Source of the DNA: an uncultured Burkholderiales bacterium
Lineage (GTDB): Bacteria > Pseudomonadota > Gammaproteobacteria > Burkholderiales > Burkholderiaceae_C
Assembly (NCBI GenBank): GCA_945952065.1
Contig: CAMFGY010000027.1
Span: 1,763-65,762 of the forward strand
Direction of reading: 5' to 3'
DNA length: 64,000 nt
Positions within the stretch are counted from its first letter, which is position 1. Every line of letters starts with the position of its first letter. Below the pieces are notes generated by a model that worked only from the letters and a program-made list of their open reading frames with translations, was not told the origin of the DNA and did not search any database. A program made the translations under genes and the position numbers. Shown here piece by piece: positions 10,990 through 64,000 of the stretch.

Positions 10990-13806
10990 ATGAGTGAAGA
11001 AGAAATCCGAGCTTTGCTACTCGACAACCTGGAAGAATTGCTGCCGCGCCTGGCTCGATCCAGCTTGGTCTTGATGGAGTTCGACGCCCGCAGCAAGACA
11101 TGCTTGGCAGTCAACGAGGGGGCACAAGCCCAACTGGGTTTTGACGCCGAAGTCTTGGTGGGCCGTGATGCCAGTGAGTTGCTCAAGGTCGAGCCGCGAG
11201 AGTTTGATCGCCTTTGGCAAAGTGCTTTGGCTGGAGAGAAGGCCAATTTCCTTTGCAACCTGGATGGCGCCGATGGCTTCGGCATGGAATTGGTGGGCAC
11301 TTTGTTCAAAGGCGATCGCCCCGAAGTGGCCTACACCTTGTTGATGATGGCTCAGGCCAGCCCTGTGGGCAGCGATGAGTTGATGGCTTTGCGCAGTCGC
11401 TCTGAGGCCATCAATCGATCCCAGGCCGTGATTGAATTTGATTTGCAAGGACATGTCGTCAGCGTCAATGACAACTTCCTGAAGCTGATGGGCTATGTGG
11501 AGTCCGAGGTGCTCGGCAAACACCATGCCATGTTTTGCGAAGACCGATTCGCCAAATCGGAGGACTACCGCGAATTCTGGGACAAGTTGCGTGCAGGCCA
11601 GATTCATGACGGCGAATTCAAGCGCATTGGCCGAGGCGGTCGAGAGGTCTGGATTCGTGCCAGCTACAACCCCATTTTGGATGGTCGAGGTCGCCCGATC
11701 CGTATCGCCAAATATGCCATGGACGTCACCGCGGCCAAACTCCAGGCTGCCGAAATTTGTGGCAAGTTGGAGGCATTGGATCGAACCATGGCGCGCATCG
11801 AGTTCGACTTGGAAGGCAACGTTCTGGACGCCAATGAGAACTTCCTAAAACTCATGGACATGCGCGCCGAAGACCTGATGGGCCAGCACCATCGCATTTT
11901 TGTGGACCACGACTACGCGCGCTCTCAAGCCTACCGGCAGTTTTGGCAAAGCCTCGGGCAAGGCCAATACGACCGCGGTGAATACAAACGCTTTGGCCGT
12001 GATGGCAAAGAGGTTTGGTTGCAGGCCAGCTACAACCCGATCTTCGACCTCAATGGCCAGCCCATGAAGGTGGTGAAGTTCGCCCTTGACGTAACCGAAA
12101 ACAAAAAACGCGCGGCCGACTTCGAGGAGCGCGTCAATGCAATCAACCGATCACAATTGGCAGTTGAGTTCGATTTGGAAGGCCGGGTCATTTGGGCCAA
12201 TGAAGGTTTTCTCAGCTTGACGGGTTTCGCCCTCAAAGACATTCAGGGCAGGCCCCATCGCATATTCTGTGAGCCCGGTCAAAGCCACGCGGATACCGAG
12301 AGTGAACTGTGGACCCAACTCAAGCGCGGTGAGTTTGAGGCCGGTGAATTCAAGCGCCGAGGCAAGGAGCAACAGGAAATCTGGCTGCAAGCCTCCTACA
12401 ACCCGATCCTGGATCTGAACGGTAAGCCCTGCAAGGTCGTGATGTACGCGGAAGACGTGACACAGACCAAACTCCGCAATGCCGAGTTCGAGGGCAAAGT
12501 CAAAGCCATCAGCCGCGCCCAGTCCGTGGCTGAGTTTTCGCTAGATGGCACTGTTTTGCACGCCAACGACAACTTCTTGCAACTGATGGGATACAAGCTG
12601 GAGGAAGTGCGAGGCAAGCACCACAGAATCTTTTGCGAACACGCCGGCACCAACTCCGAGCAATACCTGAGCTTTTGGGAAAAACTCAGCCGCGGCGAGT
12701 TTGAAAGCGGAGAGTACAAGCGCCGCAACAAAGAAGGCCAAGACATCTACATCCAAGCGACTTACAACCCAATCTTCGACCTCGACGGACGGCCAGTGAA
12801 GATCGTCAAGTTCGCCATTGACGTGACCAAGAGCAAAACACGCAACAGCGAATTTGAGAGCCGGGTTCTGGCCGTGGACCGTGGCCAGGCAGTGATCGAA
12901 TTCGATCTGGACGGCCATATCCTCAAGGCCAATGAAAACTTCCTAAGGGTGATGGGCTACTCTGCCCGTGAAGTGCAAGGGCAGCATCACAGCATGTTCT
13001 GCACTGCCGACTACATCCGCAGCCAGTCCTACCGAGACTTCTGGCTGGCTCTCAACAAGGGCGAATTCCAATCAGGTCGCTACCACCGCGTGGGCAAGTT
13101 CAATCGTGATGTCTACATTCAGGCCAGCTACAGCCCCATCTTGAACCTGCGTGGCGAACCCGAGCGCATCATCAAGTACGCATACGATGTCACTGATCAG
13201 GTCTTGCTGGAGCAAAAGATTGCCCAAAAAACCACCGCCATGACGGAGGTCGTTCAGCAGCTCGGCGCTTCGATCGACAACATTGCACAGTTCAGCAATG
13301 CCGCCACAGAGATTGCAAGCGGCACACAGCGTGCCGCTGAACAAGGCTTCGAGGCCTTGCGCGGTGCGATTGAATCGATCGAGCTGATCCAGCGCTCATC
13401 GGGCGAGATCAGCGAAATCGTCAAAGTCATTGATGAAATCTCCAGCCAGACGAATCTGTTGGCCTTCAACGCCGCAATAGAGGCCGCTCGCGCGGGCGAA
13501 CATGGCGTGGGCTTTTCCGTGGTGGCCGGTGAAGTGCGGCGACTGGCCGAGCGCAGCTCGCAAGCCGCCCGCGAAATTGGCAAGCTCATCAATGAGTCGA
13601 CGGTGCGGATCACGCAGGGCAATGAACGCTCTCAAAACGCCAAACAATCCTTTGAGGGTATTGTCAGCAGCGTCAGAAAAACGAGCACCACCATCCATGA
13701 CATCGCGAATTCGACCCGAGCACAGCAAAAAGTCTCCACGCAGGTGGTGAGCCTGATCAGCGAGTTAAGCTTCGCCGGACCAGGCCAGCATTCGGCCGGG
13801 CAATAG
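10990..13806 (+). CDS. Soluble multi-PAS methyl-accepting chemotaxis protein
   Basis: No TM segments. Five repeats of [[14 protein letters not shown]..ANxNF...[14 protein letters not shown]] plus an N-terminal PAS-like region, then a short signalling domain with [34 protein letters not shown]. Confidence 0.93.
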
Positions 13807-13857
13807 GCTGGCTTTGATGGTGCGCCTGAACCTTCTCGATTTACCTGAGCTCGCATC

Positions 13858-15486
13858 ATGACCACTGCTCCAGCGCAAGTCCTTCGAAATGACGGCGCGC
13901 GGCCGGCAGCTCGGTCCATATTCGGTCTGTTTCGCATAGATGGTGTGCATCTGGCACTTCCAGTCAGCTGCATGCGCGAGGTCCTGCCCTGTCCGGAACC
14001 CCTCCCTCCCTTGCCCTGCCCTGCCCAAGGCCTTGTGGGCTGCATCGAGGTGCGCGGGGTGATGCTACCGGTGTTGGACGTTTGCGCCCTGCTTGGCCCA
14101 ATCAGTCCGGCAAGTCATGAGCGCATCATCATCGTGCTGCGCTGGCAGTCGCGCTTGCTGGGCATTCTGGTGGGCCAGGTAGAGGGTATGGCCCGCATCG
14201 ATCAACAGGCCTTGATGCGCTTGCAACGCCCCGGCGGTAGCCAAACCCGCGCCTTGGTCTCACATTTGTTCGAATATGAAGGCCATTCGGTTAGCGTGCT
14301 GGACCCAGCGAAAATTGCTGAATTGCCCGATGTTCCCTGGGTCGATGAACCGCAGCGCGAGCCCGAGCCCAGCCCCAGTGAAGGGGACATATTGGAGACC
14401 CCGCTGAGCTTGGCCTCGCACCAAAGTCAGCATCAGGAGTCCATTTTGTTGTTTCATTGCGCCGGCCGCCAACTGGGTGTGAGTGCCCTGGATGTGCATG
14501 CCACGGTGCCGCGCTGCGCCATTTTGGCCAGTCCCTTGCGCGGAGGCATCTGCCAAGGGGTGATTCAGCACCACGGTCGCCAGGTGCCGGTCGTCAACAC
14601 CTTGGCATTGTTGAATCTGGGCCAGCTGCCCCAGGTAAACGAGGCTGCGCTGTTGATACTTCGATTTCCGGACCAAGGCTTGGTCGGCCTGATGATCGAT
14701 GGCGTCAGTGACATCTTGCGTATCGCGCCGAGCCAAACCCTGCCCATGCCGCGTCTGGCGGTGCCACAAGCCGCATGGTTCCGCTTTGCGATTGACCTGC
14801 GTGCTTGGTCCATGGCCGGCCTGAGCGAAGCCCACCCAAATGGCCCACAAGCCATGGTGTTGAACGTGCCGGCCTTGCAGCAAAAAAGCCATTTGGCCGG
14901 GCTGGCGAGTTTGAGTAGCAAAGCCCTCTGTGCAACGCCGCTTGATCGCCGAGCCAGTCCATTTAGGAATGAAGGCACTCGCAGCGGCCGTCCAAGCCGC
15001 CGTCCGTTTTTGCGCTTTCAGTTCAGCGGCCAAGACTTTGCCTGCCCGCTAGACCAGATCAGCGAGATCTTGCCCTTCAAAGCGAGGGAGCTGGCTCGCA
15101 CCAGCACCGATGCCCAGGTGCTGGGCATGATGGCCCACCGCGGCAAAACCTTGACGGTGATGTGTCTCGCCACGGTGTTGGAAAGTCAACCGCCGAATGA
15201 AGCCGGAAGGGCTCATATCCTGGTGGTCAATACCCGCCACGAAGCGGTGGGCTTTTGCGTGGAGAGTCTGCGCGCCATTGCCTCAGGCCATCGTTTGGCG
15301 GGACCGCAAACGTCCAGCCCGAGCAGCACCTTGCCGGCCATCGCGTATGCAAAATCCTTGGTGGAACTTGACCTGGAGGGCGGCTTGGATTGCGTCCCCA
15401 GCATGGACTTGGTTCAACTTGCCGAGACTCTGTTGAGCAGGGCAGAACAAAACCAGGCCGCGCCCGACCTTGCCCCAGCGAGTTGA
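13858..15486 (+). CDS. Protein with three tandem CheW-like domains
   Basis: Three CheW starts (FRIDGVHLALPVSCMREV; FHCAGRQLGVSALDVHATV; FQFSGQDFACPLDQISEIL), each followed by a G..RG..PV.D-like strand and a G..V..V motif. Confidence 0.85.
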   Translation: MTTAPAQVLRNDGARPAARSIFGLFRIDGVHLALPVSCMREVLPCPEPLPPLPCPAQGLVGCIEVRGVMLPVLDVCALLGPISPASHERIIIVLRWQSRLLGILVGQVEGMARIDQQALMRLQRPGGSQTRALVSHLFEYEGHSVSVLDPAKIAELPDVPWVDEPQREPEPSPSEGDILETPLSLASHQSQHQESILLFHCAGRQLGVSALDVHATVPRCAILASPLRGGICQGVIQHHGRQVPVVNTLALLNLGQLPQVNEAALLILRFPDQGLVGLMIDGVSDILRIAPSQTLPMPRLAVPQAAWFRFAIDLRAWSMAGLSEAHPNGPQAMVLNVPALQQKSHLAGLASLSSKALCATPLDRRASPFRNEGTRSGRPSRRPFLRFQFSGQDFACPLDQISEILPFKARELARTSTDAQVLGMMAHRGKTLTVMCLATVLESQPPNEAGRAHILVVNTRHEAVGFCVESLRAIASGHRLAGPQTSSPSSTLPAIAYAKSLVELDLEGGLDCVPSMDLVQLAETLLSRAEQNQAAPDLAPAS

Positions 15487-19448: not shown

Positions 19449-19650
19449 ACCAGCGCCCTGCATCGAGACGCAAGCACCGGCGCAAATGCAGGCGCTTGCG
19501 CGCCATCGAAAGCGTTCCCCAAGGCGCGCAGCCATGCCATACTTTGCCCAGCGCGAGGCCACGCCCTAACTCCCCATTTGCTCGCAGCCCCTGACGCGCA
19601 GACTGAGCGCTCTTGCTCATGCCCTGACAGCTTTGTTCGGAGGACGGAAC

Positions 19651-21219
19651 ATGGATCTGACAGTCTGGATGCGGCGGTTCACCATTCGCCTGCGCATGCA
19701 AGGCGCGATTGGCATTGTGCTGGGCATGTTTGCCCTGGTCGGCATCACCGGCTTCCTGGGGGGCCGACAGCTCCAACACCTGAACGCCGAGTTCATGGAC
19801 CATTCGGTCGCTGAACTGCGTCATCTCGCAGAAATCCGCAGCGCGCTCGCCGAGGTGCGGCTGCTGGAGAAAGACATGGTGATCAATTACGAAGATGGCA
19901 TTGCCGTGCTCAAGGCGCGGGAAGCCTGGCAGGCCGCCATCCAGAAAACCAAGGACGGTTTGGCCGCCTTGCTGGAAGGTGAAGAAGATGAAGACAACCC
20001 CTTGGCGCGCGAGGCGACCGAGCTGATGGCCGCCTACAGCAAAGACTCGCTGCCGGTGTTGGCGCAAATTCAAGACGGCGGCTTTGACACCGCCAAGGTC
20101 GCTGACCGCATGCTGGAACGCGCCAAAGCGCATATGACCGGTGTTGAGCTGCGCGTTGCCAAGATCGCCCTCATCCTGGATGCCGAGGCCCAGGAGACCC
20201 AAGTCGGCTTTAACGCGTCGATGCGGCAGATCGGCTATGTGTTCCTCGGCGTGCTGGCCATTGTGGTGCTGGCGGTCGTGCCCCTGACCTTGATGAACTC
20301 ACACAGCATCATCAGCCCGATGCGCTACGCCCGCACGGTGGCGCAGGCGATTGCCGCGGGTGATTTGAACCGCCAAATCCAATTCGTGGGGCAAGACGAA
20401 GCGGCCGACCTGCTCTCGTCCTTGAAGACGATGCAAGACTCGCTGCGCTTGCTGGTCAACCAAGTGCGCGAGTCCACCCAGCACATCGAGAGCGCCAGTG
20501 TCGAAGTGGCAGCCGGCAATCAAGACCTGAGCGAGCGCACCGAGCAAGCCGCGTCGAATCTGCAAAGCACGGCCAGCTCCATGGACCAACTGACCGGCGG
20601 CGTGCGCCAAAGCGCCGAGGCCGCCATGACGGCAAAGCAGCTGGCCGGCTCTGCGGCGGAGTTTGCGCAGCGCGGCGGCAGCGTGGTGGCGGAAGTGGTG
20701 TCCACCATGGGTCGCATCAATCAAAGCTCAAGGCGCATCGGAGACATCATTGGCGTGATTGATGGCATTGCCTTTCAAACCAATATCTTGGCGCTGAACG
20801 CTGCGGTTGAAGCCGCACGCGCCGGCGAGCAAGGACGAGGCTTTGCCGTCGTTGCCAGCGAAGTGCGCTCCTTGGCCCAGCGCAGCGCCGAGGCCGCGCG
20901 CGAAATCAAGCAACTGATCGGAGCCAGTGTCGAACAAGTCGATGCGGGCTCGCGGCTGGTTCAGGACGCTGGGACAACCATGGACGAGATCGTCGCCTCG
21001 GTGCAGCATGTCAGCACCATGATTGGCGACATTGCCAGCGGAACTTCGGATCAAAGCCAGCGCATCGCCCAAGTCAATCAAGCCATCAATGAGCTCGACC
21101 GCATGACCCAGCAAAACGCGGCCTTGGTCGAACAATCGGCGGCAGCAGCAGAGAGCCTGCGCGAGCAATCACAAAAACTCGGGGCCGCGGTGTCGCAATT
21201 TCATCTTGACGCCCGCTGA
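19651..21219 (+). CDS. Transmembrane methyl-accepting chemotaxis protein
   Basis: Two TM helices around a helical periplasmic domain, HAMP, and [34 protein letters not shown]; GGAGG SD. Confidence 0.95.
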
Positions 21220-22396: not shown

Positions 22397-22657
22397 CTCA
22401 AGCGGCCAAATACTCTGATCACCACGGCAAGTCCAGCACATTTACATGGCGCCATTCAAACAGGGGGGAGGCTCACTTTCCCGGCTATTGCTGGCGAAAG
22501 GGAAGCGCTAGCATCGACCCGCTTTTGAAGCTCTTTGATGCTTTTTGAAGAAAGGCCTGGTTCGCTCCTGAACAGCGACTCTGGCCTCACGCTGCATGGC
22601 TGCGGCGACACCCATCGCATGTCGGTCATCCTTGGACACAGATCTGGAGAAGAACTG

Positions 22658-25243
22658 ATGACAAAGCGTAAGCCCACCGCCTTGCTGACTGCGATTGTGC
22701 TCAGCGCCTTGAGTATGGTCCCCGCTCAAGCCAGCACGGAAGCCGCGGCCAGTACCGCCAGCCCAGCTCGCCCCCTCAACGACGACAGCCCCGAGGCAAT
22801 GCCTGCGCCACTCGTCAAACCGGAGAAGTTGGAATTCCTCAAATCGCGGATTGAGCGCAAGCAAAAGATGTCCAACCCCGCCCGGGCCGATATGCCGCAC
22901 GAGGCGGTGGCCTTTTACGTCAACAAACGCACCGGCCCCATCCTCACGCGCGGCCCCAGCCCAACCACGGGCATGCGCCCGCTGGACCCGCGCCGCTATC
23001 TGAGCGCCGTGCAAGAAGCCCGCAAGACCCCGGCCTACTCGACGCGGATGAACCGCCTCGTGTCGGTCAGCCGGGAGGCTTTGGCCGCCCCCGGCGCCGC
23101 CTTGGGCACATGGACCTCGCTGGGCCCGAGCAACCAGGGCGGGCGCACCCGCCAGTTGCTGATCGACCCCACCAACCCCAGCGTGATGTACGCCGCCTCG
23201 GTGGGCGGCGGCGTTTGGAAGAGCAGCAACGCAGGCGCCGACTGGACCCAGCTGACTGACCTGGTCTTGCCCAATATCGCTGTGGCCAGCTTGGCCATGG
23301 ACCCGAGCAATCCGCAGGTGCTGTACGCCGGCACTGGCGAAGGTTTTTTCAACGCAGACGCGATCCGCGGCACCGGCATTTACAAGACCAGCGATGGCGG
23401 CGTGACTTGGACTGCGCTGAGTGCCACCGTGCCGCCCGCTGGCGTCGCCGGTGACTTCAGCTACGTCACGCAGATCGTGGTCAGCCCACGCTCGCCGAAC
23501 CGGGTCTATGCCAGCACGCGCACCGGCTTGTTCCGCTCCAACGACGGCGGCGGCACCTGGACAAGACTGATCGACGCCAACGCTGTGCGTGGCTGCCAGG
23601 ATGTGGTCTTGCAGGCCAAGCGCGCGGCAGGTTATGTGTTTGCCGCCTGCGGCACCTTTGCCCAGGCCAGCATCTACCGGGGCTTGGACTCGACCGCCAG
23701 CACCTTCTCGCCGGTATTCACCACCACCGGCATGGGCCGCACTTCGCTGGCCATTGCGCCCTCGAACGAGAACTACATCTACGCCCTGGCCTCCAACAGC
23801 AGCAGCTACGGCATGCTGGGCGTCTTCCGCTCGACCACCGGCGGCGCCAGCGGCAGCTGGACCACCCAGGTGAGCGCCAGCGACCCCAACCCCATCAACC
23901 GCGTTCAGCTGACCAACCCGGTCTATGCCTTCAGCCAATGCGTTGGGGGAAGCGTGGGCAACTACAACCAGGGCTGGTATGACAATGTGATTGCCGTGGA
24001 TCCCATGGACCCTGAAAAGGTCTGGACCGGCGGCGTGGATCTGATGCGCTCCGACGATGGCGGGCGCAATTGGGGCGTCGCCAGCTACTGGTGGTTCAAC
24101 CGCGGTGACCCCAACTACGCGCATGCCGACAACCATGTCATCCGCTTCCACCCGAACTACGACGGCAGCAGCAACACCACAATTTTTGTCGCCAGCGATG
24201 GCGGCGTCTTCAGAACCAACAACGCCCGCGGTGCGGTTGGCACCACGGTCGACAACATCTGCGGCAACCCGGTCGCCGGCATGGTGCAATGGACTGAGCT
24301 GAACAATAACTACGCCACCACGCAGTTCTATCACGGCGCGGTCTACCCCGATGGCTCCGCCTTCACGGGCGGCATGCAAGACAACGGCACCTGGCGCGGC
24401 ACCACCGCCTCCACCGCCTGGCAAAAGCTCTTGGGCGGCGATGGTGGCTATAACGCGGTGGACACCTTGGGCGACAACAACCCGGCCAACGATGTGCTGT
24501 TCGCCGAGTACACCAGGTTGTCGATTCAGAAGTCGACCGACGGCGGCGCCACCTTCAACAATGCCATCACCGGCATCACGGGAAGCGGCTTTGCCTTCAT
24601 CGCCCCCTTCCACATGAATGCGGGCAACAAGCAGCACCTGTGGACAGGCGGCTGGGACATCTGGCGCAGCACCAACCAAGCCAGCAACTGGGTGAAGGCC
24701 AGCAATTCCACGCCCGGTTCGGGTTCGGTCTCGGCGGTGGCCGCTTCACCGAGCGACACCAACCGCGTCATCATCGGCATGAGCGATGGATACATCATCT
24801 ACAACACCAGCGCACTGAGCGCGAGCTCCGTGACCGTCTGGCCCAACACGCGACCGCGCGCCGAGTTTGTCGGCGGCATCGCCTTTGACCCCAATGACAG
24901 CAATGTGGCCTATGCCGCATACGAGACTTTCTCGGGACTGAGCGTCTACAAAACCAGCAATGCCGGCGCAAGCTGGGTCGCCCTGCCGGGCACCGGTGTG
25001 AATGTGCTGCCCAAGGTGCCGGCGCACACGGTGGTGGTCGACCCCAGCAATTCGGCACGCATCTATGTCGGCACCGACATCGGCGTCTACACCAGCATCG
25101 ATGGCGGCGCCAACTGGTACCGGGAGAACACCGGCTTTGGCAATGTCAGCGTCGAGCACTTGGAAATCAACAGCCAGGGCAGCCCCTATCTGTTCGCCTT
25201 CACGCATGGCCGTGGCGCATGGCGCGTGCCACTGAATCCATGA
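22658..25243 (+). CDS. Secreted BNR/Asp-box beta-propeller protein (VPS10/GH74-like fold)
   Basis: Signal peptide (AQA); WTSLGPSNQGGRT..L.IDP; about 9 S/T-x-D/N-x-G-x-x-W Asp-box-like motifs. Confidence 0.85.
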   Translation: MTKRKPTALLTAIVLSALSMVPAQASTEAAASTASPARPLNDDSPEAMPAPLVKPEKLEFLKSRIERKQKMSNPARADMPHEAVAFYVNKRTGPILTRGPSPTTGMRPLDPRRYLSAVQEARKTPAYSTRMNRLVSVSREALAAPGAALGTWTSLGPSNQGGRTRQLLIDPTNPSVMYAASVGGGVWKSSNAGADWTQLTDLVLPNIAVASLAMDPSNPQVLYAGTGEGFFNADAIRGTGIYKTSDGGVTWTALSATVPPAGVAGDFSYVTQIVVSPRSPNRVYASTRTGLFRSNDGGGTWTRLIDANAVRGCQDVVLQAKRAAGYVFAACGTFAQASIYRGLDSTASTFSPVFTTTGMGRTSLAIAPSNENYIYALASNSSSYGMLGVFRSTTGGASGSWTTQVSASDPNPINRVQLTNPVYAFSQCVGGSVGNYNQGWYDNVIAVDPMDPEKVWTGGVDLMRSDDGGRNWGVASYWWFNRGDPNYAHADNHVIRFHPNYDGSSNTTIFVASDGGVFRTNNARGAVGTTVDNICGNPVAGMVQWTELNNNYATTQFYHGAVYPDGSAFTGGMQDNGTWRGTTASTAWQKLLGGDGGYNAVDTLGDNNPANDVLFAEYTRLSIQKSTDGGATFNNAITGITGSGFAFIAPFHMNAGNKQHLWTGGWDIWRSTNQASNWVKASNSTPGSGSVSAVAASPSDTNRVIIGMSDGYIIYNTSALSASSVTVWPNTRPRAEFVGGIAFDPNDSNVAYAAYETFSGLSVYKTSNAGASWVALPGTGVNVLPKVPAHTVVVDPSNSARIYVGTDIGVYTSIDGGANWYRENTGFGNVSVEHLEINSQGSPYLFAFTHGRGAWRVPLNP

Positions 25244-25322
25244 GGCGAAGAAAAGCAACTTCCGCTGTTGAACTGACAAAAGACGCTTGATCCCGCGACC
25301 CCTGACCTCGGAGACCTCCCCC

Positions 25323-26036
25323 ATGAATCGACACAACTCCAAGCGCCCACAACTCTGGCACGCCTGCGCCGCCCTGTTGCTGGGCGCAGCACTGGCCCCG
25401 AGCGCACAAGCGTCCTTCGTCGGCTCGCGCGTCGCGCTGGCGGGCAATGACTCCATCAATTGGGGTCAACTCGGCGCCAGCGAGGCGGGCGTGGCTTCGC
25501 CGGCGGCCGTCAACTCGGTGGGCGGCGCCACCGCGACGGTGAGCAATAGCGGCGGGGCCATGATGCGCTTCGACGATGACGGCTCCGCGTTTGCCGGCAA
25601 CTTCGCCCTGGGCGATCAATTGCTGAGCAACTTCATGGCCGCAGGCACCTTGACGATTGATTTCCTCAACCCGGTCGCCAAGGTGGGCGCTCAATTGATG
25701 TCGTTTGACTATGGCGCCTTCACCGGCGTGATCGAGGTCTTTGACAGCGCCAATCTGCTGCTGGAGTCTTACGCCATCGAAGGCTTGTCCAGCGATGCGC
25801 AAGACAATAGCGCCTTGTTTCTGGGCGTGAGCCGCAACGCCGCCGATATTGATCGTGTGAGCTTCTCGGTGCGCGGCACAGCGCAAGGCAATTTGGACTT
25901 TGCGCTCAACCGCGTGGACTTCAACCAAGACGGCGGCACCGGCACCGGCCCCACCCCCGTCCCGGAGCCCAGCTCCAGCGCCTTGCTCGGCGCCGCCCTT
26001 TTGGCCTTCTACGGCAGCCGGCGCAAGCAGCGCTGA
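25323..26036 (+). CDS. PEP-CTERM sorting domain protein
   Basis: Signal peptide; C-terminal VPEPSS + hydrophobic stretch + RRKQR. Confidence 0.92.
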   Translation: MNRHNSKRPQLWHACAALLLGAALAPSAQASFVGSRVALAGNDSINWGQLGASEAGVASPAAVNSVGGATATVSNSGGAMMRFDDDGSAFAGNFALGDQLLSNFMAAGTLTIDFLNPVAKVGAQLMSFDYGAFTGVIEVFDSANLLLESYAIEGLSSDAQDNSALFLGVSRNAADIDRVSFSVRGTAQGNLDFALNRVDFNQDGGTGTGPTPVPEPSSSALLGAALLAFYGSRRKQR

Positions 26037-33079: not shown

Positions 33080-33240
33080 GAGGCGCCCCCAGGCCTTCTC
33101 CTCCCCCCGCAACTGAGGGGGAAGTCATAGCCCCCCCCTTACTTCGGGTTTGTGCAGCCGTTTCAAGATCTTTCAAATCCGCCCGAGCCCCAACAAGGCG
33201 CGAGTCCTTGTCGGGAACCCATCCGATCAGAAAGCCCCCA

Positions 33241-33918
33241 ATGAAAAAGACTCTTTTGTTGACTGCCGCCTTGGCAGGTTTTGCATGCAGCGCCTCCGCC
33301 GGCGTGGTTTTGAGCCAGAACCGCGCGAATTTCGAAAGCCAGTTTGCAGGTGCCTACACCGTTGAGACCTTCACCTCCGACTCGCACTTCCCAATCTCCA
33401 CCGGTGTGCTCAACAGCAGCACCAATTTGCCAGGCATTGGCATCACACCGGGCTTGATCAAAGCCGGCGTGACGTATTCGACGCCGATCAGCACCGGCTT
33501 CTTTTTCAACATCGATGCTGGTGCTGGCTTCAATGGCGGTTTTCTGGACAACACCTACACCAATGCCCTCCTCACGGTGACCTTTGACAATGCCGTCTCG
33601 GCTTTTGGCTTTGACACCAATCAATTCATGCGCAATGTTGACGTCGTGCTTCGATACGACGACAACAGCAGCGAGGCCTTTCACGGCATTGCCACCTCGA
33701 TGAGCTTTTTCGGCTTCAACAATGACCAAGGACACAAGATCAAGTCGGCCGTGATTGGCTCGTTGCAGAACGGGACCTTCAAGTTCGCGCTGGATAACTT
33801 CACCTTTGGCAATCGGGGTGAACCTGCGCCTGCGATCCATGTGCCCGAGCCCAGCAGCCTGCTGCTGCTCGTGGCCGCCCTGAGTGGTGCCGCCCTGGCC
33901 CGCCGCCGCAAGGCCTGA
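33241..33918 (+). CDS. PEP-CTERM sorting domain protein
   Basis: MKKTLL signal peptide (ASA); C-terminal VPEPSS + hydrophobic stretch + RRRKA. Confidence 0.92.
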   Translation: MKKTLLLTAALAGFACSASAGVVLSQNRANFESQFAGAYTVETFTSDSHFPISTGVLNSSTNLPGIGITPGLIKAGVTYSTPISTGFFFNIDAGAGFNGGFLDNTYTNALLTVTFDNAVSAFGFDTNQFMRNVDVVLRYDDNSSEAFHGIATSMSFFGFNNDQGHKIKSAVIGSLQNGTFKFALDNFTFGNRGEPAPAIHVPEPSSLLLLVAALSGAALARRRKA

Positions 33919-46150: not shown

Positions 46151-47158
46151 ATGCAGCCCTTGACGCCCCCCGCTTCCTTACCGCCACTGCGGGTCTTGGT
46201 GGTTGACGATCAAGCCAGCAGTCGCTCGGTTTTGAGCGCGCAGTTGCATGCAGCCGGGCATCAGGTGATTGAGGCGGGCTCGGCACAGCAGGCCTTGCAG
46301 CTGTTCAGCCAGGATCATCCCGACCTGGTGCTGCTGGATGTGGAAATGCCCGACCATGACGGTTACTGGGTGGCCAGCCAAATGCGGGCGGCGGAGTCGG
46401 GCGGGTGGACGCCGATTGTGTTTCTCTCCAGCCGCGACCAAGACCAGGACCTCTGGCAAGGCATTGAATCCGGCGGCGACGACTATCTGGTCAAGCCCGT
46501 GTCCGGCACGGTTTTGCAAGCCAAGCTGCGCGCGATGCAAAGGCTGCGTCGCATGCAGCTGCGCTTGATCGAGCTCTCCGATGAATTGCGCGCCGCCAAC
46601 GAACAGCTGACCAAGCTCAGCATGGAAGACGGCCTGACCGGCTTGCCCAACCGACGCGCTTTTGACGCCCGCTTGCAGCAGGAGATCCAGGCCGCGCAGC
46701 GCGACCAACAAGCGCTGACCCTGGTGCTGTGCGATATCGACCTCTTCAAGGCCTACAACGACAGCCTCGGCCATGTGGATGGCGACGCCTGCTTGCAGCG
46801 CATCGCCCGCCTGCTGAAAGAAACCTGCCGCCGTCCGCGCGACTTTGCGGCGCGCTATGGCGGCGAAGAATTTGCGCTGATCCTGCCGGGCACGCCGCGC
46901 TCCGGCGCCATGACTTTTGCGCGTGCGGTGTTGCGCTCACTGGAGTTGACGGCCATCCCGCACCAGCAGTCCACAGTGCGGCCCTTTGTGACGCTTTCGG
47001 GCGGCATCACCACCTGCATCCCGGACCGCAGCACCACACTGGAGGGTTTGCTGCGGCGGGCGGACGATGCGCTCTACACCGCCAAATCACGCGGCCGCAA
47101 CCGCTTTTTCAGCTTCGAAATGCAGATGGACACCTTGGATCAGCGCCAGCACCCATGA
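46151..47158 (+). CDS. Response regulator diguanylate cyclase (REC-GGDEF)
   Basis: REC (VVDD, LLDVEMP, YLVKP), DGLTGLPNRR, RPRD I-site, RYGGEEF. Confidence 0.95.
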   Translation: MQPLTPPASLPPLRVLVVDDQASSRSVLSAQLHAAGHQVIEAGSAQQALQLFSQDHPDLVLLDVEMPDHDGYWVASQMRAAESGGWTPIVFLSSRDQDQDLWQGIESGGDDYLVKPVSGTVLQAKLRAMQRLRRMQLRLIELSDELRAANEQLTKLSMEDGLTGLPNRRAFDARLQQEIQAAQRDQQALTLVLCDIDLFKAYNDSLGHVDGDACLQRIARLLKETCRRPRDFAARYGGEEFALILPGTPRSGAMTFARAVLRSLELTAIPHQQSTVRPFVTLSGGITTCIPDRSTTLEGLLRRADDALYTAKSRGRNRFFSFEMQMDTLDQRQHP

Positions 47159-47182
47159 GCGGGAGGGCCGGCTTGACCGCGT

Positions 47183-47557
47183 TCAGTCGCTGATGCCGCA
47201 AAGCTTGCGAAACGGCCCAAGCACTGCTTCGCCACGGAAGGGTTTGACGATCCAGCCGGTCACGCCAATGGCCTTGCCACGGGCGCGCAGCTGGGGGTTG
47301 TCTTCGGTGGTCAGCATCACGATGCGCACCGAGGAATTGCCCAACTCGGTGCGGATCTTCTCGGCCATGGTCAGGCCATCCATATTGGGCATATTGACGT
47401 CGCTGACCACCAGCCGAATGCCGGGGTCGGCGCGCAACTGCATCAGGCCGTCGCGCCCGTCGGTGGCCACCGCCACCTGAAAACCGTTCTTCCCCAAAAA
47501 CGTGGCCACGATTTCCCGCATGGTGCTGGAATCGTCGACCACAAGCACATTCGCCAT
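47183..47557 (-). CDS. Single-domain (CheY-like) response regulator
   Basis: VVDDS, VSDVNMPNMDG, MLTTE, WIVKPF. Confidence 0.93.
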   Translation of the reverse strand: MANVLVVDDSSTMREIVATFLGKNGFQVAVATDGRDGLMQLRADPGIRLVVSDVNMPNMDGLTMAEKIRTELGNSSVRIVMLTTEDNPQLRARGKAIGVTGWIVKPFRGEAVLGPFRKLCGISD

Positions 47558-47603
47558 ATCTCAAACTCTCCGTGCACCCCGGCCATGAACGGCCGGGATG
47601 GAT

Positions 47604-48569
47604 TCAAAACAGATCCAACTCGCCGGTCGGCCCGGCCGAGGGCGCATGTTCCATGAAGGCTTCAAACTCTTCCAAGGACCAATGCAAATTGAAGATCACC
47701 CGCTGAACAATCATCAAAGGCGGCATGCCCGGTCGCGCCGGGTCAGACAGGTGATAGCGAATGCACAGCTGCGGATCTTGCGAACCAAATGATATGTATT
47801 TGTGCTGATGGTTGATGACGATGGGCACCTGAATCTGCTGCTTGCTCAAATCCTGCGGCGGGATGTAGCGGTTCTTGAAGGCGCCCCAAATCAAATTGGT
47901 GGTCTCGCCCAGCATATTGTTGAGCTCGCGGAAGTTCAGATCCCCGCCAATCCCTTCATAGCTGAAACCCTGGATCAGGCCCTGGCGCAGCGCGTTTTCT
48001 TCCGTCTGCAGCATCATGTAGCCCCGGCACCAAGTGCTTTCAATCGGGATCAGGGTGGACACCTCGCCATGGATGATGCGGTCATGCACCACATAGGGGG
48101 CTTCCGCGTCCACATGGGCAAAAGGGAACATGGCTTTGAGCGCTTCGCAGGTCAGCTCCACAATGCCGCGCACCAGCACCGTGGGGTAGCTGAGGCTGAA
48201 AATGGCGTGATCCACTGCTTCACGCAGCAAGGCCAAGTCACCGCCCGTCCAGCGGTGCCGCACCACGATTTGCTCTTGCAGCGTCAACTCCCGCTCGCTG
48301 GTGCGGCGCAAAAAGATGGGCAATTCCGGGCGCAGCTTGTGGATGGCGCGCGCCAGCGTGAGCCCGTCCGGCCCTTCGCAAGGCAGGTCTTCGGCCAGCA
48401 ACACGCCGCCTAAATCCTTGTGCTGCGCCAAGGCGGCCAGCGCATCGGTGGCCGAGCGCGGCAAGGGCTGCAAGCCCACTTGGCGACAAAACTCAATCAG
48501 GCTGGCGTAATGGGCCGGATCATGCTCCAGCAACAAAACCTTGGCCGCAAGTTGGGTGGTTTCAGTCAT
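47604..48569 (-). CDS. Degenerate REC + CheX-like domain protein
   Basis: N-terminal receiver-like fold (VLLLEHD, GVLLAED); C-terminal CheX-like region with LGETTNLIWG (E-x2-N). Confidence 0.7.
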   Translation of the reverse strand: MTETTQLAAKVLLLEHDPAHYASLIEFCRQVGLQPLPRSATDALAALAQHKDLGGVLLAEDLPCEGPDGLTLARAIHKLRPELPIFLRRTSERELTLQEQIVVRHRWTGGDLALLREAVDHAIFSLSYPTVLVRGIVELTCEALKAMFPFAHVDAEAPYVVHDRIIHGEVSTLIPIESTWCRGYMMLQTEENALRQGLIQGFSYEGIGGDLNFRELNNMLGETTNLIWGAFKNRYIPPQDLSKQQIQVPIVINHQHKYISFGSQDPQLCIRYHLSDPARPGMPPLMIVQRVIFNLHWSLEEFEAFMEHAPSAGPTGELDLF

Positions 48570-57054: not shown

Positions 57055-58206
57055 ATGCAAAAGCAGCCTCTGGTCTTGGTGGTGGATGACGATGCCCTGA
57101 TGCGCGAGCTCTATGGCGAAGCGCTGGGTGAAGACTTCAGTCTGGAATTCGCCGTCGATGGGTCTGAGGCCCTGACCCGGCTCCGTCAGGGGCAACGACC
57201 CGACGCGGTGCTGATGGATGTCGCCATGCCTGGCTTGGATGGCTATGAGACTTGCAGATGTCTGCACCAGGAATGCATCGATCCTCCCCCTGTGATCTTT
57301 GTCTCCTCGAACGATAGGCTAGAAGATCGTATGCGCGGCTATGACGCTGGCGGCAATGACTATCTTTGCAAACCCGTTGAGGCCCAGGAGTTGGTGGCCA
57401 AAATCCGCCGACAAATCCAAGCCGATGCCGCGCAGCGCGCCTTGCATGCGGAACGAGAAGAGGCCGTAATGGCCGTGCTCAGCGGTGCCGACCTCGCCGG
57501 TGAGTTGGGGGTGGTGCTGGACTTTCAACGCGGCCTGAACGCTTGCAGCAACAGCGAAGCTTTGTGTCGATTGCTTTTCGAAGCCCTCGCGCGCTATGGC
57601 TTTGAGGGCTGTGTTCGCATTTACAGCCGCAGCGCTTCTCTCGACAGGTCAAGCGGCGGGGTTTGCACGTCGTTGGAGCATTCCATTCTTGACGCTTTGG
57701 TGGCGCAGCGAGAAGGACCAAGAATCCGCCCATTCCAAAGCAACACCAGTTTTAACTTTGGCACCGTGGTGCTTTTTGTTCGCACATTGAACATGCAACG
57801 CGACACCCAAATGGCCCCAGAGGAAAGCCAAAGACAAGGGCGGGCCATCGACAACATTGCCCTGTTGATGGAGGCCGCCGTTTCGCGCCTCCAAGCCATC
57901 GAAGGGGAAAATGCTTTGCAAGACTTGGGCAATTCACGTCGCTTGATGAGCATTGCCACCCAAGCTTTGAATGACGTTGCACAGCGCAACGAACATATGG
58001 CCGAACAGGTGCGCCAGGCTTTTGAGAGTCTTTTGTCGGAATTGGACATGAGCTTCTTGCACTTGGGTTTGACCTCCAGCCAAGAAGATTCTGTTGCCGA
58101 GTTGGTCAAGTCTCATGGTGCCCATGTGCAAACGGTGCTTGAGCAAGGCAGAGCGACTGAACAGGTGCTGCGTCGCGTCATCGAAGATTTGAAGGTCGGC
58201 AGCTAA
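57055..58206 (+). CDS. Response regulator with uncharacterised C-terminal region
   Basis: REC (VVDDD, LMDVAMP, FVSS, YLCKP); about 260 aa C-terminus with no recognisable DNA-binding or enzymatic motif. Confidence 0.85.
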   Translation: MQKQPLVLVVDDDALMRELYGEALGEDFSLEFAVDGSEALTRLRQGQRPDAVLMDVAMPGLDGYETCRCLHQECIDPPPVIFVSSNDRLEDRMRGYDAGGNDYLCKPVEAQELVAKIRRQIQADAAQRALHAEREEAVMAVLSGADLAGELGVVLDFQRGLNACSNSEALCRLLFEALARYGFEGCVRIYSRSASLDRSSGGVCTSLEHSILDALVAQREGPRIRPFQSNTSFNFGTVVLFVRTLNMQRDTQMAPEESQRQGRAIDNIALLMEAAVSRLQAIEGENALQDLGNSRRLMSIATQALNDVAQRNEHMAEQVRQAFESLLSELDMSFLHLGLTSSQEDSVAELVKSHGAHVQTVLEQGRATEQVLRRVIEDLKVGS

Positions 58207-58213
58207 GCCCTGT

Positions 58214-61200
58214 TCAGGCCGGTGGATCGAGCGCCACCAGGCATGGCGCATCTTGCGCCAAACGGGCTTGCAAAGGCCCCACATCATCGCCCTGGGCCTC
58301 GCGTAAATTGCGCTCCAACTCGGCCGCCAACTGGCTGATCACCGTCAAGCCCAGCGAAGCCGCCGTGCCCTTGATGGAATGCGCGATACGCGTGGCCGAG
58401 GCTCTATCGCCCTGCGCCAGCGCGGCCAGAATGCGCGCCCCCGCGTCGCCTTGCTCGCGCCCAAAACGCGCCAGCAAACCGGGCAGACGCGCCAAGCGCC
58501 GCCCCAGCAGCCGCTGGGCCGCGCCGAGGTCAAAGCCTTCCAGTTGCAGCAGTTCGGCAGGCAAGCCGCTCCCTGTTTCGGCTGTGACTGCGGCCTCGGT
58601 GGAGAAGCCGGCGGGTGGGAGTGCGGCACTTGCTGCGGCCATTGCGGCCCCCTGCGGCACTGCAGGCTCATCAAGCACATCAGGCCGTTCAGTCGCAGGT
58701 GGCGCAGCGAGTTGCAACCATTGCAGCAGCTTGGCATACAGCAACTCAGGCAACACCGGCTTGCTCAGGTGGTCATTCATGCCCGCTCGCTGACAGGCCA
58801 GGCGATCTTCCTCAAAGGCCTGGGCGGTCAAGGCAATCACCGGCACTGCCGCATAGCCGGGCAGGCGGCGCAAGGCTTGCGTGGCCTCGATGCCGTCCAT
58901 TTTCGGCATGCGCACATCCATCAGCACCAAATCGAAAGACGCTCGCTGTGCCCAAGCCAAGGCCTCCACCCCATCGCTGGCGGTTTGCACCAGCATGCCT
59001 GCGTCGCGCAGCAAATCGCTGGCGATCTCCAGGTTGATATCCACATCATCCACTAACAAGATGCGGCGGGGGCCCAGTGCACGCAGCTGCAGCAAGGCCT
59101 GCTCCCCCTGAGCGACCGGGGCCGGCGCGATGGGCTGATGCGCCAGGGCCAGCGGCAACTCCAACCAAAAGCAGCTGCCCTGTCCCGGCTGGCTGCGCAC
59201 GCCCACCTGCCCCCCCATTAACTCCGCCAGCTTGCGTGCAATCGACAGGCCCAGGCCGGTGCCGCCGAAGCGATGGGCAGTGTCTTCTGAAGCTTGCTCA
59301 AACACCTGAAATAGCCGCTGTTGCTCCGCTTCGCTGAGGCCGATGCCTTGGTCTTCAACTTCAAACCGCAGCCTCAGGCGCGGGCCTTCTTGCGACAGGA
59401 GTCTGGCGCGCACCCACACCTCACCGCGCCGCGTGAAGCGCACCGCATTGGACAGGTAATTGAGCAGGATCTGCCCCAAGCGCATGCCATCGCCATGCAA
59501 ATCGCAAGGCACACCGTCCAAGTCTTGCAACAAACGCACTTCCTGCTCGGCAGCACGCTCTCGCACCATCAACAACAGCTCATCGATCAAAGGGCGCAAA
59601 GCAAAGTCGGCGTGCACCAGTTGGATCTTGCCTGCGTCGATCTTGGAAAGGTCCAGCAAATCATTCAGCAGCGTCAACAGGTGGCGCCCCGTTTGATCAA
59701 TTTGCTGCACCCTCAAGAGCAGGCGTTCAAGCATGGCGGCACTCGCTTCTGAGGCCTGTTGCTGCAGCAGTCCCAAATCGCGCTGCATCAGACGCGCAGC
59801 GCCCAGCACCGCATTCATCGGGGTGCGAATCTCATGGCTCATATTGGCCAGAAAGGCGCTCTTGCTGGCATTGGCGGCCTCAGCGCGTCGGGTAGCCTCA
59901 GACAACTGCACCGTGCGCTGGGTCACCAAGTCCTCCAGATGGATGCGGTGCTGGTTGAGCTCGGCTTCGATGGCCATGCGCTCGCTGACATCCACTTGCA
60001 AAGCCACGTAATGCGTCACCCGCCCATCTTCCCGGCGCAAGGGATAGATGGCAACCCGGTCAACATACACCTCACCGTTCTTGCGCCGGTTGTGCAACAT
60101 GCCTTGCCAGGGTTCACCGCGCAGCAATGAAGCCCACATCTCCTCATAAACACCCTGAGGGGTTTCGCCTGAGGCCAACAAATTGGGCTTCTTGCCCATC
60201 ACCTCGCGCGGGGCGTAGCCGGTGGACTGGGTGAAGGCTGCGTTCACATAGTCAATCATCCCGTCCATGTTGGTGATGATGACGCTGACAGGGCTTTGCT
60301 CCAAGGCCAACGAAAGCTTGCTCACTTCTTCTTCAATGCGCTTGCGGTCGTCAATATCAATGCCCACGCTGAGCAAGGCAGGCCGTCCCTCCAGCTCAAT
60401 CACTTGCAGCTGCAAATCGACCCAATAGAAGCTCCCGTCGCGCCGGGCCTTCAACCACTCGGTTCGAAGCGATGCACCCTGCCCGCGCTCAAAGCGCTGC
60501 TTCAGTTTCTCGATCAAGTGGCGTGCATCTTCGCGTGAGCAAGGGGGGGGTGCGAAGCTCAGGCTTTCGAGTTCAGCCACCGAAGCGCAGCGGGTTTCCA
60601 ATAAGGCCTGCCGGTTGGCGTCACTGATCTTGCCGCTGTCCAGATCCAGCAAGACCATGGCCACGCCCGATTCATCAAACAGGGTACGAAAGCGATGCTC
60701 GCTGGCGCGCAGCCGCTCCTCGGCCCGCTTGATCGCCGTGATGTCATGACCGATGCCGAAGACGCCGATGATTTCGCCATCGCTGCGCCGCAGGGGCGAC
60801 TTCACAATCGACAAGGTGCGCGCCTGAGGCTCCGGCAGATCGACCTCCCAGCGCAAAGCCTGCCCTTGGTCGAGCACCTCCTTGTCTTGGGCATGAAACA
60901 TCTGCGCCAGATCGCCGGCTATCAAATCGGCATCGCTATGACCCAGCACCTGCTCGGCCGACAAGGCCGTCAAACGTTGGGCGGCGGGATTGAAGAGCAA
61001 ATAGCGATGGGCCAGGTCCTTGGCGAAGATCACGTCCTCGGAGGTCTCGGCAATGCTGGACAACAGCTCCAAAGCATGCAGCCGGTCTTGCTGCTCTTGC
61101 GCCAGGCGTCGACTGGCCAACAAATGCTCTTTTTGCCGCAGGACCGAAAACACCATCCAAAACAGGCCGATGGTGAAGAGGCCTGCCAACACAATCTGCA

Positions 61201-62122: not shown

Positions 62123-62123
62123 A

Positions 62124-63710: not shown

Positions 63711-64000
63711 AGATTCATCCCAATCATCCGGGACCGCAAAATGCCCGCTTCGGCACATTTCACGGGGGCACCTACGGCGCAGGGCTACCAGCCGCAGGGG
63801 TCGTACAAAAACTGAGCCCGTTGCTCTGTGGGGCGCAGCTCAGTGTAGGCGGATGACAGCTCTGCATACAGCAGCTTGTCATCGGCCTGTGGGGCCGGTC
63901 ACACAGTGTGGGCCGCCCGGCTCCACTCAAGCGCCAAGTGCGGTAATCGGTCACACAAGAACAAGCCCTATATTTCGACCATGCCCATCAAAACTGAACT

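Follow-up and report, generated by a model that had tools for sequence, protein, structure and literature searches.

A conserved two-gene unit encodes a soluble multi-PAS chemoreceptor with a variant hairpin tip and a triple-CheW protein, generally without a linked kinase gene

Chemosensory arrays are usually viewed as machines made of receptors, CheW and CheA, and a CheW protein with three CheW domains is treated as the signature of one rare class, F9. What, then, is the role of a soluble receptor gene that is followed by a triple-CheW gene and by no kinase gene? We addressed this question at a locus on a 64,000-nucleotide stretch of contig CAMFGY010000027.1 from an uncultured Burkholderiales bacterium (assembly GCA_945952065.1), the whole of which is called the window here. 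A preliminary description, made from the sequence alone, had placed two such genes 51 bp apart, and had proposed that the altered hairpin tip of the receptor and the triple-CheW protein (hereafter CheW3) co-evolved. The open reading frame (ORF) list confirms both genes and their spacing, with lengths given in amino acids (aa):

10990..13806, + strand: soluble multi-PAS chemoreceptor gene, 938 aa (ORF list; five Pfam PAS matches and MCPsignal)
13807..13857, + strand: intergenic spacer, 51 bp
13858..15486, + strand: triple-CheW scaffold gene, 542 aa, of CheW.III architecture (three Pfam CheW matches)

Comparison with related loci gives good support to the view that the two proteins are a co-evolved, private receptor-adaptor pair without a kinase of its own. 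A word-indexed homology search returned 10 relatives of CheW3, and nine when a 100-sequence profile was used, which gave a false impression of rarity. In an exhaustive search of 1.84 billion representatives using a hidden Markov model (HMM) profile, the CheW3 family comprised at least 150 clusters at 50% identity with single, full-length and collinear matches at E<1e-87, and 654 at E<1e-30. Loci were drawn from species genomes, 50 metagenome contigs, the encoding contigs and annotated plasmids. In each of the 53 non-redundant loci whose upstream sequence could be read, the receptor with the variant tip lies immediately upstream of CheW3, with gaps of -4 to +52 bp, and in most relatives the two genes overlap by 4 bp or sit 1-26 bp apart. 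The co-occurrence of the two genes in other genomes, which had been named earlier as a check on the pair, thus held in every locus tested. Only two loci, those of Ruegeria and L074, carry CheR and CheD between the receptor and CheW3. Paraburkholderia and Caballeronia looked exceptional because the first CheW domain of CheW3 scored below the CheW threshold used, and they in fact harbor pairs. In Pseudomonas syringae pv. tomato, CheW3 lies behind the receptor as well, frameshifted in one assembly (L072, 722-2464) and with a 4-bp stop overlap in another.

The hosts of the pair include Paucibacter, Aquabacterium, Limnobacter, Methyloversatilis, Andreprevotia, Paraburkholderia and Caballeronia among the Betaproteobacteria, Novosphingobium aromaticivorans (plasmid pNL2) and Ruegeria sp. 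TM1040 (megaplasmid) among the Alphaproteobacteria, P. syringae among the Gammaproteobacteria, and Nucisporomicrobium flavum and one actinomycete metagenome-assembled genome among the Actinomycetota. On pNL2 of N. aromaticivorans, the cassette (L064, 5656-13533) adjoins the repA, parB and AAA ATPase replication and partition genes, a placement consistent with its horizontal mobility. The pair is a translationally coupled, horizontally mobile two-gene unit, and its presence in more than 50 independent loci is not a matter of chance. More than 45 loci from different phyla have both ORFs intact, and the 122-aa period of the PAS units, the invariant tip, the domain-specific residues of CheW3 and the translational coupling indicate that purifying selection acts on each gene and on the pairing of the two. 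On the other hand, the receptor is split into a PAS part and a signalling part in N. flavum (L068, 5961-8801) and in L074 (7312-8828). These split copies, as well as the frameshifted CheW3 of P. syringae pv. tomato, are either sequencing errors or signs of cassette decay in some hosts.

In the signalling hairpin of the receptor, we located the following features:

13195..13773, + strand: short signalling hairpin, aa 736-928, with helices of 99 and 93 residues (AlphaFold model; MCPsignal)
13504..13539, + strand: hairpin tip, with V840 in place of a near-invariant Arg (R394 of Tsr) and S843 in place of Ala
13711..13740, + strand: lone methylation-consensus-like site, aa 908-917 (regular expression [ASTG][ASTG]xx[EQ][EQ]xx[ASTG][ASTG])

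The hairpin aligns gap-free with the tip region of canonical methyl-accepting chemotaxis proteins (MCPs). In an alignment anchored on the Tsr landmarks R388, E391 and F396, V840 takes the place of Tsr R394, and Tsr A397 is matched by S843. The tip reads GVGFSVVA at aa 839 instead of the canonical G-R-G-F-A-V-V-A, a substitution that is family-wide and that, as the preliminary description had pointed out, distinguishes the receptor from the other MCP in the window (19633..21219). The variant, G[V/L/I]GFS[V/I]VA, is present in all 53 CheW3-paired receptors, whereas the other MCPs in the pair loci read G[R/Q/K]GF[A/G] at this place and none of these 14 proteins carries it, so that the proposed covariation of tip and CheW3 is upheld. 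Among the 120 closest relatives of the signalling domain, the tip could be read in 117, of which 115 have the variant. The Arg is kept in all bystander MCPs and in DosM, the double-tip receptor, of the F9-type loci, whose system includes a cheA. Cassidy et al. described contacts of Tsr R394 with CheA, namely, with D316 of the P3 domain ('undipped') and E361 of the P4 domain ('dipped'), based on disulfide cross-linking and on the lowered chemotaxis of R394C/S mutants (PMC6746300). The replacement of this CheA-contacting Arg in every paired receptor fits a receptor without direct kinase contact, and we infer that the paired receptors no longer engage CheA directly.

The signalling domain is short, as had been noted earlier. 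The AlphaFold model of aa 735-938 (pLDDT 92.9) contains two helices, 736-834 and 836-928, so that each arm has about 13-14 heptads, which falls in the 24H-28H range and is shorter than 34H, while the arms of the window's other MCP have about 126 residues; the 24H class is defined by 12 heptads per arm through the class-specific HMMs of Alexander & Zhulin. The regular expression scan of the receptor found one methylation-consensus-like site rather than conserved sites on both hairpin arms. This site at aa 908 is not conserved outside the Paucibacter-like clade and is absent from most relatives, and methylation-consensus sites reappear in the receptors of the cassette variants that contain CheR and CheD. 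As a separate observation, a protein described from Comamonas testosteroni (PMC6391922) may be a member of the tip-variant family.

The sensory part of the receptor consists of the following two regions:

10990..11394, + strand: N-terminal degenerate PAS-like module, aa 1-135, without the HHxxFC/W signature (hhalign)
11395..13224, + strand: tandem array of five 122-aa PAS units, aa 136-745, assigned to a flavin-type PAS clade

Pfam detects five PAS stretches in the 938-aa receptor and a single MCPsignal domain at aa 774-925, the latter with a score of 134.3 bits against a gathering cutoff of 34.6 (PF00015). The PAS units share the signature G-x-H-H-x-x-F-C ... F-W ... W, and the G-x-H-H-x-x-F-C anchors at aa 176, 298, 420, 542 and 664 recur with a period of exactly 122 aa. 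We found no transmembrane segment in either protein of the pair, the KD19 hydropathy maximum of the receptor being 0.85, compared with 2.86 in the other MCP of the window. The earlier reading of a membrane-free receptor with five near-tandem PAS repeats is therefore correct, whereas the extra N-terminal PAS-like region that it included is only weakly supported, since the match of this module to the PAS-unit profile is poor (hhalign probability 55%, E 1.2e-4, 67 columns); moreover, the region occurs in only some family members. The orthologous receptor in Paucibacter sp. Y2R2-4 is 87.5% identical. Across the family, the receptors have two to seven detectable PAS units, and 124 of the 130 unit-to-unit spacings measure exactly 122 aa. 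A period kept this strictly speaks for a rigid superstructure of repeated PAS units rather than for beads on a string. The conserved residues of the unit are G41, H43, H44, F47, C48 (60%), W62 (97%) and W86, and the HHxxFC motif is specific to this receptor family.

The closest solved structures to the PAS unit are 3EWK (E 1.5e-16), followed by the PAS domain of Aer (8DIK, E 7.6e-6) and LOV domains. We take 3EWK to be the tandem PAS of MmoS that binds flavin adenine dinucleotide (FAD), and the match to DosP falls on what is presumably the second, non-heme PAS region of that protein. In addition, the PAS domains of BdlA and McpS have been predicted to be FAD-type by published sequence analysis (PMC8694187). 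Because of these flavin-type structural matches and the FAD prediction for BdlA and McpS, heme, which had been suggested earlier by analogy with BdlA, is not the best-supported guess, and we rejected it as the leading candidate; the PAS units are probably of the flavin type, with flavin as the predicted cofactor.

CheW3 has three domains with different degrees of divergence:

13915..14352, + strand: CheW domain D1, aa 20-165, the most canonical, with E41 and R66-G67 kept (conservation; PDB alignment)
14431..14892, + strand: CheW domain D2, aa 192-345, derived, with A215 in place of E38, H239 in place of R62, and a conserved C232-x-G234
15004..15441, + strand: CheW domain D3, aa 383-528, the most sequence-divergent, with E403 and R428-G kept

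Pfam recognizes three PF01584 stretches (168 bits in total) and no other domain in CheW3, in agreement with the three CheW domains proposed before and with the CheW.III architecture. Three-domain CheW proteins, catalogued as CheW.III, reach 1-3% of the abundance of single-domain CheW and have been tied to F9 systems by Wuichet and Zhulin (per bioRxiv 10.1101/2022.05.07.491037,.491035). By family conservation and alignment to T. maritima CheW, E41 and R66-G67 of D1 are the equivalents of E38 and R62-G63 of E. coli CheW, which scores best against the D1 profile. D1 and D3 have the hallmarks of a functional CheW domain, namely, the salt bridge of E38 with R62 and the glycines G57/G63 (numbered as in E. 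coli CheW). D2 does not have them, and its substitutions, placed by alignment to the PDB entry 2ho9, are conserved family-wide. D3 has no match at E<=1 among PDB sequences and adopts a confident CheW fold in the AlphaFold model. Each of the three domains has its own signature, which is held across the family. The model of the whole protein (pLDDT 84.4, pTM 0.75) has low-confidence linkers at about 165-190 and 356-378; its individual domains reach TM scores of 0.76-0.85 against CheW and CheA-P5 structures, and a fold search with the model returned single-domain CheW/P5 matches only. The database gene call for CheW3 (P0001, 504 aa) takes M39 as its start and thereby loses the initial beta-strands of D1 (13858-13971). 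The ATG at 13858 is backed by alignments and by the Pfam match from aa 24, and a strong Shine-Dalgarno sequence is absent. CheW3 is also the fastest-evolving gene of its syntenic block, with 72% identity to Paucibacter versus 80-90% for the neighbors, and 47% versus 72-83% in the comparison with L001.

No cheA, cheR, cheD, cheB catalytic domain or further CheW-like domain was found within the 64-kb window, which bears out the earlier statement that no cheA, cheR or cheB gene is adjacent. Since heuristic gene calling chose at least one wrong-strand ORF (in L056), the absence of che genes from related loci rests on strand-agnostic HMM and tblastn scans and not on a Pfam census alone. Genes for CheA, CheR, CheD and CheB were generally absent from about 50 loci in tblastn searches with these queries, CheR and CheD being present in two loci and CheB only in an F9-type locus. 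When every ORF of the loci was searched for CheW-like domains, irrespective of strand, one other protein emerged, a CheA with Hpt, dimerisation, HATPase_c and CheW domains, which is encoded about 7 kb upstream of the pair in the Methyloversatilis lineage, where the pair adjoins flhB and a canonical MCP gene. In the pooled Pfam census of 138 inner and 72 outer neighbor genes, a second canonical MCP (10), receivers (7), HATPase_c (4), GGDEF (3) and flhB/flhA recurred, and no third gene was conserved with the pair. The two cassettes with inserted CheR and CheD genes (Ruegeria sp. TM1040, L070, 5027-10654; and L074, 7312-11687) have a methylation-consensus site in the receptor and lack CheB and CheA; the flanks of L074 contain a DUF3391/HD_5 (HD-GYP-like) gene as well as two genes with GGDEF domains. 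A different arrangement was seen in a single locus (L056, 592-4022), in which CheW3, clipped by the contig end, is followed on the same strand by a membrane-anchored kinase with Hpt and CheA-like HATPase_c domains and no P5 or CheW-like domain, and then by a CheX-domain protein. This one locus suggests that a CheA-like kinase without P5 may be served in trans by a CheW3.

Within the window, the pair is preceded by a Cu-ATPase and CueR unit and followed by genes for an SBP (solute-binding protein), pirin, DoxX, an azoreductase and a LysR protein; the second MCP, at 19633..21219, has a 4HB-HAMP-MCPsignal architecture. Neither a terminator nor a sigma-70 consensus was found in the 51-bp spacer. 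The GC content at third codon positions (GC3) is 0.69 in the pair genes versus about 0.80-0.83 in their neighbors, and GC content falls to 0.56-0.59, while GC3 of the orthologous pair in Paucibacter sp. Y2R2-4 is 0.79-0.80. We considered a recent horizontal-transfer island and rejected it despite this dip, as synteny with Paucibacter sp. Y2R2-4, at a nucleotide identity of 79%, extends over the whole 15-kb block around the pair; therefore, the pair is not a recent insertion in this lineage. The window itself derives from a fish-gut metagenome; the locus matched only fish-gut metagenome DNA runs, and no RNA run was found to contain it. About 32 kb from the pair, at 46151-48569, a small signalling cluster includes the CheY-like receiver and the CheX-domain gene of the window, and could be an output branch of the chemosensory type:

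46151-47158, + strand: receiver-GGDEF protein
47183-47557, - strand: stand-alone receiver, 44% identical to an E. coli CheY query sequence
47604-48569, - strand: 321-aa protein with a CheX phosphatase domain

Two other regions of the window are recorded for completeness. Two proteins with a PEP-CTERM motif and a 902-aa protein with Sortilin/BNR repeats (22535-26036 and 33208-33918) indicate an exosortase-type surface system that is unrelated to the pair. A dense two-component region (57055-63758) encodes a 383-aa protein whose N-terminal receiver was detected only with tblastn, a hybrid histidine kinase of 1302 aa that combines PAS, receiver and Hpt domains, and a phosphodiesterase of the receiver-EAL type.

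How might such a pair signal? Our preferred reading, to which we assign somewhat less than an even chance, is that the receptor and CheW3 form a private, insulated cytoplasmic lattice from which the signal leaves through CheW3 to a remote CheA. The receptor, in which PAS units of the flavin type follow one another in a rigid, periodic array ahead of a short MCP hairpin, would act as a cytoplasmic redox or energy sensor, and CheW3, encoded with it in an operon-like cassette, would be its dedicated three-domain scaffold. By analogy with DosM and its CheW3, the two proteins may build their own cytoplasmic lattice without CheA. The Arg-less tip would be recognized only by the co-evolved CheW3, through one or other of its domains, and the system would thereby be insulated from the ordinary CheW and CheA of the host. 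The signal would exit where D1 and/or D3 form ring contacts of the CheW/P5 type with a CheA whose gene lies elsewhere. The cassette might then serve as a portable plug-in redox or energy input for the chemosensory kinase of its host. Such an input to a remote CheA is supported by the flagellar and che gene context in Methyloversatilis, by the frequent presence of an adjacent canonical MCP (about 10 loci) and by the CheR/CheD variants. However, several observations weigh against this reading. The lost tip Arg could just as well reflect a system in which no kinase takes part, and N. aromaticivorans, on indirect evidence, may lack a flagellar and che gene set. The fast evolution of CheW3 is unexpected for a surface that docks the conserved P5 domain. 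GGDEF, EAL or HD-GYP genes flank the pair in seven of about 30 long loci (L003, L005, L006, L022, L065, L071 and L074). As for the cofactor, R57, H58 and D60 are presumably the FAD-contacting residues of Aer, and the equivalents of R57-H58-x-D60 are replaced by C-E/D-x-x in the PAS units.

Some of these observations would be accounted for if the receptor-CheW3 complex never met CheA and acted on another effector, such as c-di-GMP (cyclic di-GMP) cyclases and phosphodiesterases or partners of the derived D2, as has been proposed for BdlA. We consider such kinase-independent signalling unlikely, although it is the main rival: the CheA-contacting Arg is lost in every paired receptor, no kinase gene is linked to the pair in about 50 loci, the seven loci just listed have c-di-GMP genes near the pair, BdlA and McpS are the closest characterized receptor architecture, and the plasmid copy resides in N. 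aromaticivorans, whose genome gave the best match to no more than 2 of 40 Zymomonas ORFs in the motility category (PMC6870993), an indirect indication. However, such c-di-GMP genes are abundant in these taxa, and their enrichment near the pair is weak and suggestive only; no third gene accompanies the pair; D1 and D3 keep the canonical CheW hallmarks; and classical chemosensory logic is suggested both by the variants with CheR/CheD and by the location in a flagellar cluster. Furthermore, we know of no partners of CheW domains other than receptors and CheA-P5 or CheW. In a more specific form, which we hold to be rather improbable, the pair would be a self-sufficient two-protein array with no histidine kinase, in which CheW3, through its derived D2, relays the state of the receptor to a non-CheA effector. 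If true, an MCP-CheW lattice would here, for the first time, have an output independent of CheA, and horizontal transfer would have spread it across phyla.

Two further explanations are less likely. That the pair is an orphaned fragment of an F9 cluster, i.e., its receptor and CheW3 with the F9-class CheA, CheY, CheB and CheR encoded elsewhere in the genome, is in our judgment very unlikely. It is true that published work treats CheW3 as exclusive to F9 (PMC9321776), that the F9 arrays of V. cholerae are thought to include PAS-PAS 24H receptors without transmembrane segments (PMC7534058), and that F9-type CheW3 proteins are detectable homologues of the one studied here. However, no DosM-type double-tip receptor occurs in the window or in any pair-type locus, and the true F9-type loci differ in gene content and encode CheW3 proteins of 18-21% identity that lack domain-by-domain correspondence. 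P. syringae pv. tomato carries the pair, yet its reported chemosensory systems are only F6, F8, ACF and Tfp; and F9 CheA homologues have been reported from Gamma- and Alphaproteobacteria and Actinomycetota, whereas most pair hosts are Betaproteobacteria. Finally, the pair could be a decaying cassette without signalling function, that is, a horizontally spread inert leftover, a flavin or redox sink, or a pseudo-array without output. The fast evolution of CheW3, the GC3 of the pair below that of its neighbors in the window, and the frameshifted or split copies in P. syringae (L072), Nucisporomicrobium (L068) and L074 would agree with decay, but the intact ORFs in more than 45 loci across phyla, under strict sequence constraints, make this the explanation to which we give hardly any credence.

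Of the triple-CheW lineages recovered here, the most common one moves as a two-gene unit that comprises its own receptor and no kinase, and the tip of this receptor carries a fixed substitution at a CheA-contact residue. The pair offers a natural example of receptor-adaptor specificity, and hence of pathway insulation, that would be encoded in a handful of residues. It makes CheA-free signalling by receptor/CheW lattices testable, as well as the role of each domain of CheW3, also for the F9 system of V. cholerae. In practical terms, many annotations of a 'CheW' of about 500 aa and of an 'orphan' PAS-MCP in Burkholderiales, sphingomonads, pseudomonads and actinomycetes become recognizable as one module.

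The triple CheW and its tie to cytoplasmic receptors are already known from F9 systems. In V. cholerae, the F9 arrays contain a triple CheW and DosM, DosM being essential for the array and CheA dispensable, and the PAS-PAS 24H receptors VC1406 and VCA0864, which lack transmembrane segments, are candidate co-residents of these arrays (PMC7534058). Mo et al. called DosM and CheW3 'unique to this class' and, among 2781 species, counted 64 with full F9 clusters and 8 with CheA-less 'partial F9' sets, dosM-cheW3-cheBR, which were proposed to borrow the CheA of another class (PMC9321776). Since their screen required DosM, the module described here would have gone uncounted, and our full-text literature searches found no published description of the pairing of a tip-variant PAS receptor with CheW3. 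What appears to be new is, therefore, a widespread module without DosM or kinase, with a fixed tip substitution and specialized CheW3 domains. Accordingly, the earlier expectation that the pair is not a described class with a cognate CheA stands in part: CheW.III is known from F9 arrays that have CheA, whereas the pair lacks DosM, its CheW3 is about 20% identical to theirs, and it falls outside F9.

The likeness to the F9 core is nevertheless clear. In cluster I of V. cholerae (VC1403/VC1402), which forms double-layered cytoplasmic arrays, a triple CheW of about 500 aa likewise directly follows the gene of an MCP without transmembrane segments; both systems are cytoplasmic, and their CheW3 proteins are detectable homologues (E 2.6e-14 to 2.5e-6). 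However, the pair receptor has a single tip and one to seven PAS units, whereas DosM has two tips and usually no sensor; the pair locus lacks cheA, cheY and cheB; the tip Arg is replaced in the pair and kept in DosM; and at 18-21% identity there is no positional correspondence of D1, D2 and D3, the pair D2 lacking the E38-R62 pair. Two F9-type loci, which encode some of the most distant CheW3 homologues and were used as outgroup, illustrate the difference. In L066 (1651-5478), the only examined locus with a double-tip receptor, this receptor (second tip GRGFAIVSGDIR) is followed by CheW3 and a CheB-like gene; in L067 (2-3862), a DosM-like C-terminus is followed by CheW3, CheB, a HEAT protein and a CheR-like gene. 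All three domains of the F9-type CheW3 resemble generic CheW, whereas the similarly divergent pair-type protein P0008 keeps the correspondence of D1, D2 and D3. Because of this lack of correspondence, together with the low identity, the CheW3 of the pair is best placed in a separate and larger CheW.III clade with its own receptor type and without a kinase. Membership of the pair in F9 was rejected, given its single-tip receptor and the absence of DosM and of F9 cheA, cheY, cheB and cheR from the window and about 50 related loci, apart from one CheA about 7 kb away in one lineage and CheR/CheD in two loci.

The 'partial F9' sets of Nitratiruptor and Nautilia likewise combine CheW3 with no kinase of their own, but they keep DosM and CheB/CheR and are rare, whereas the pair module has a PAS receptor and at least 150 clusters at 50% identity. 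BdlA and McpS of P. aeruginosa and the 24H receptors VC1406 and VCA0864 resemble the pair receptor in that tandem PAS units without transmembrane segments are fused to the shortest MCP signalling domains, but they have two PAS units, compared with five here and up to seven in relatives, and a dedicated adjacent CheW has not been described for them. With the BdlA-like receptors of biofilm dispersion, which act through c-di-GMP enzymes and are activated by proteolysis, the likeness is one of architecture only. At the level of the single sensory unit, the best matches are the flavin PAS sensors (3EWK, Aer 8DIK and NifL), and the Trp of the F-W motif is conserved in 97% of the units.

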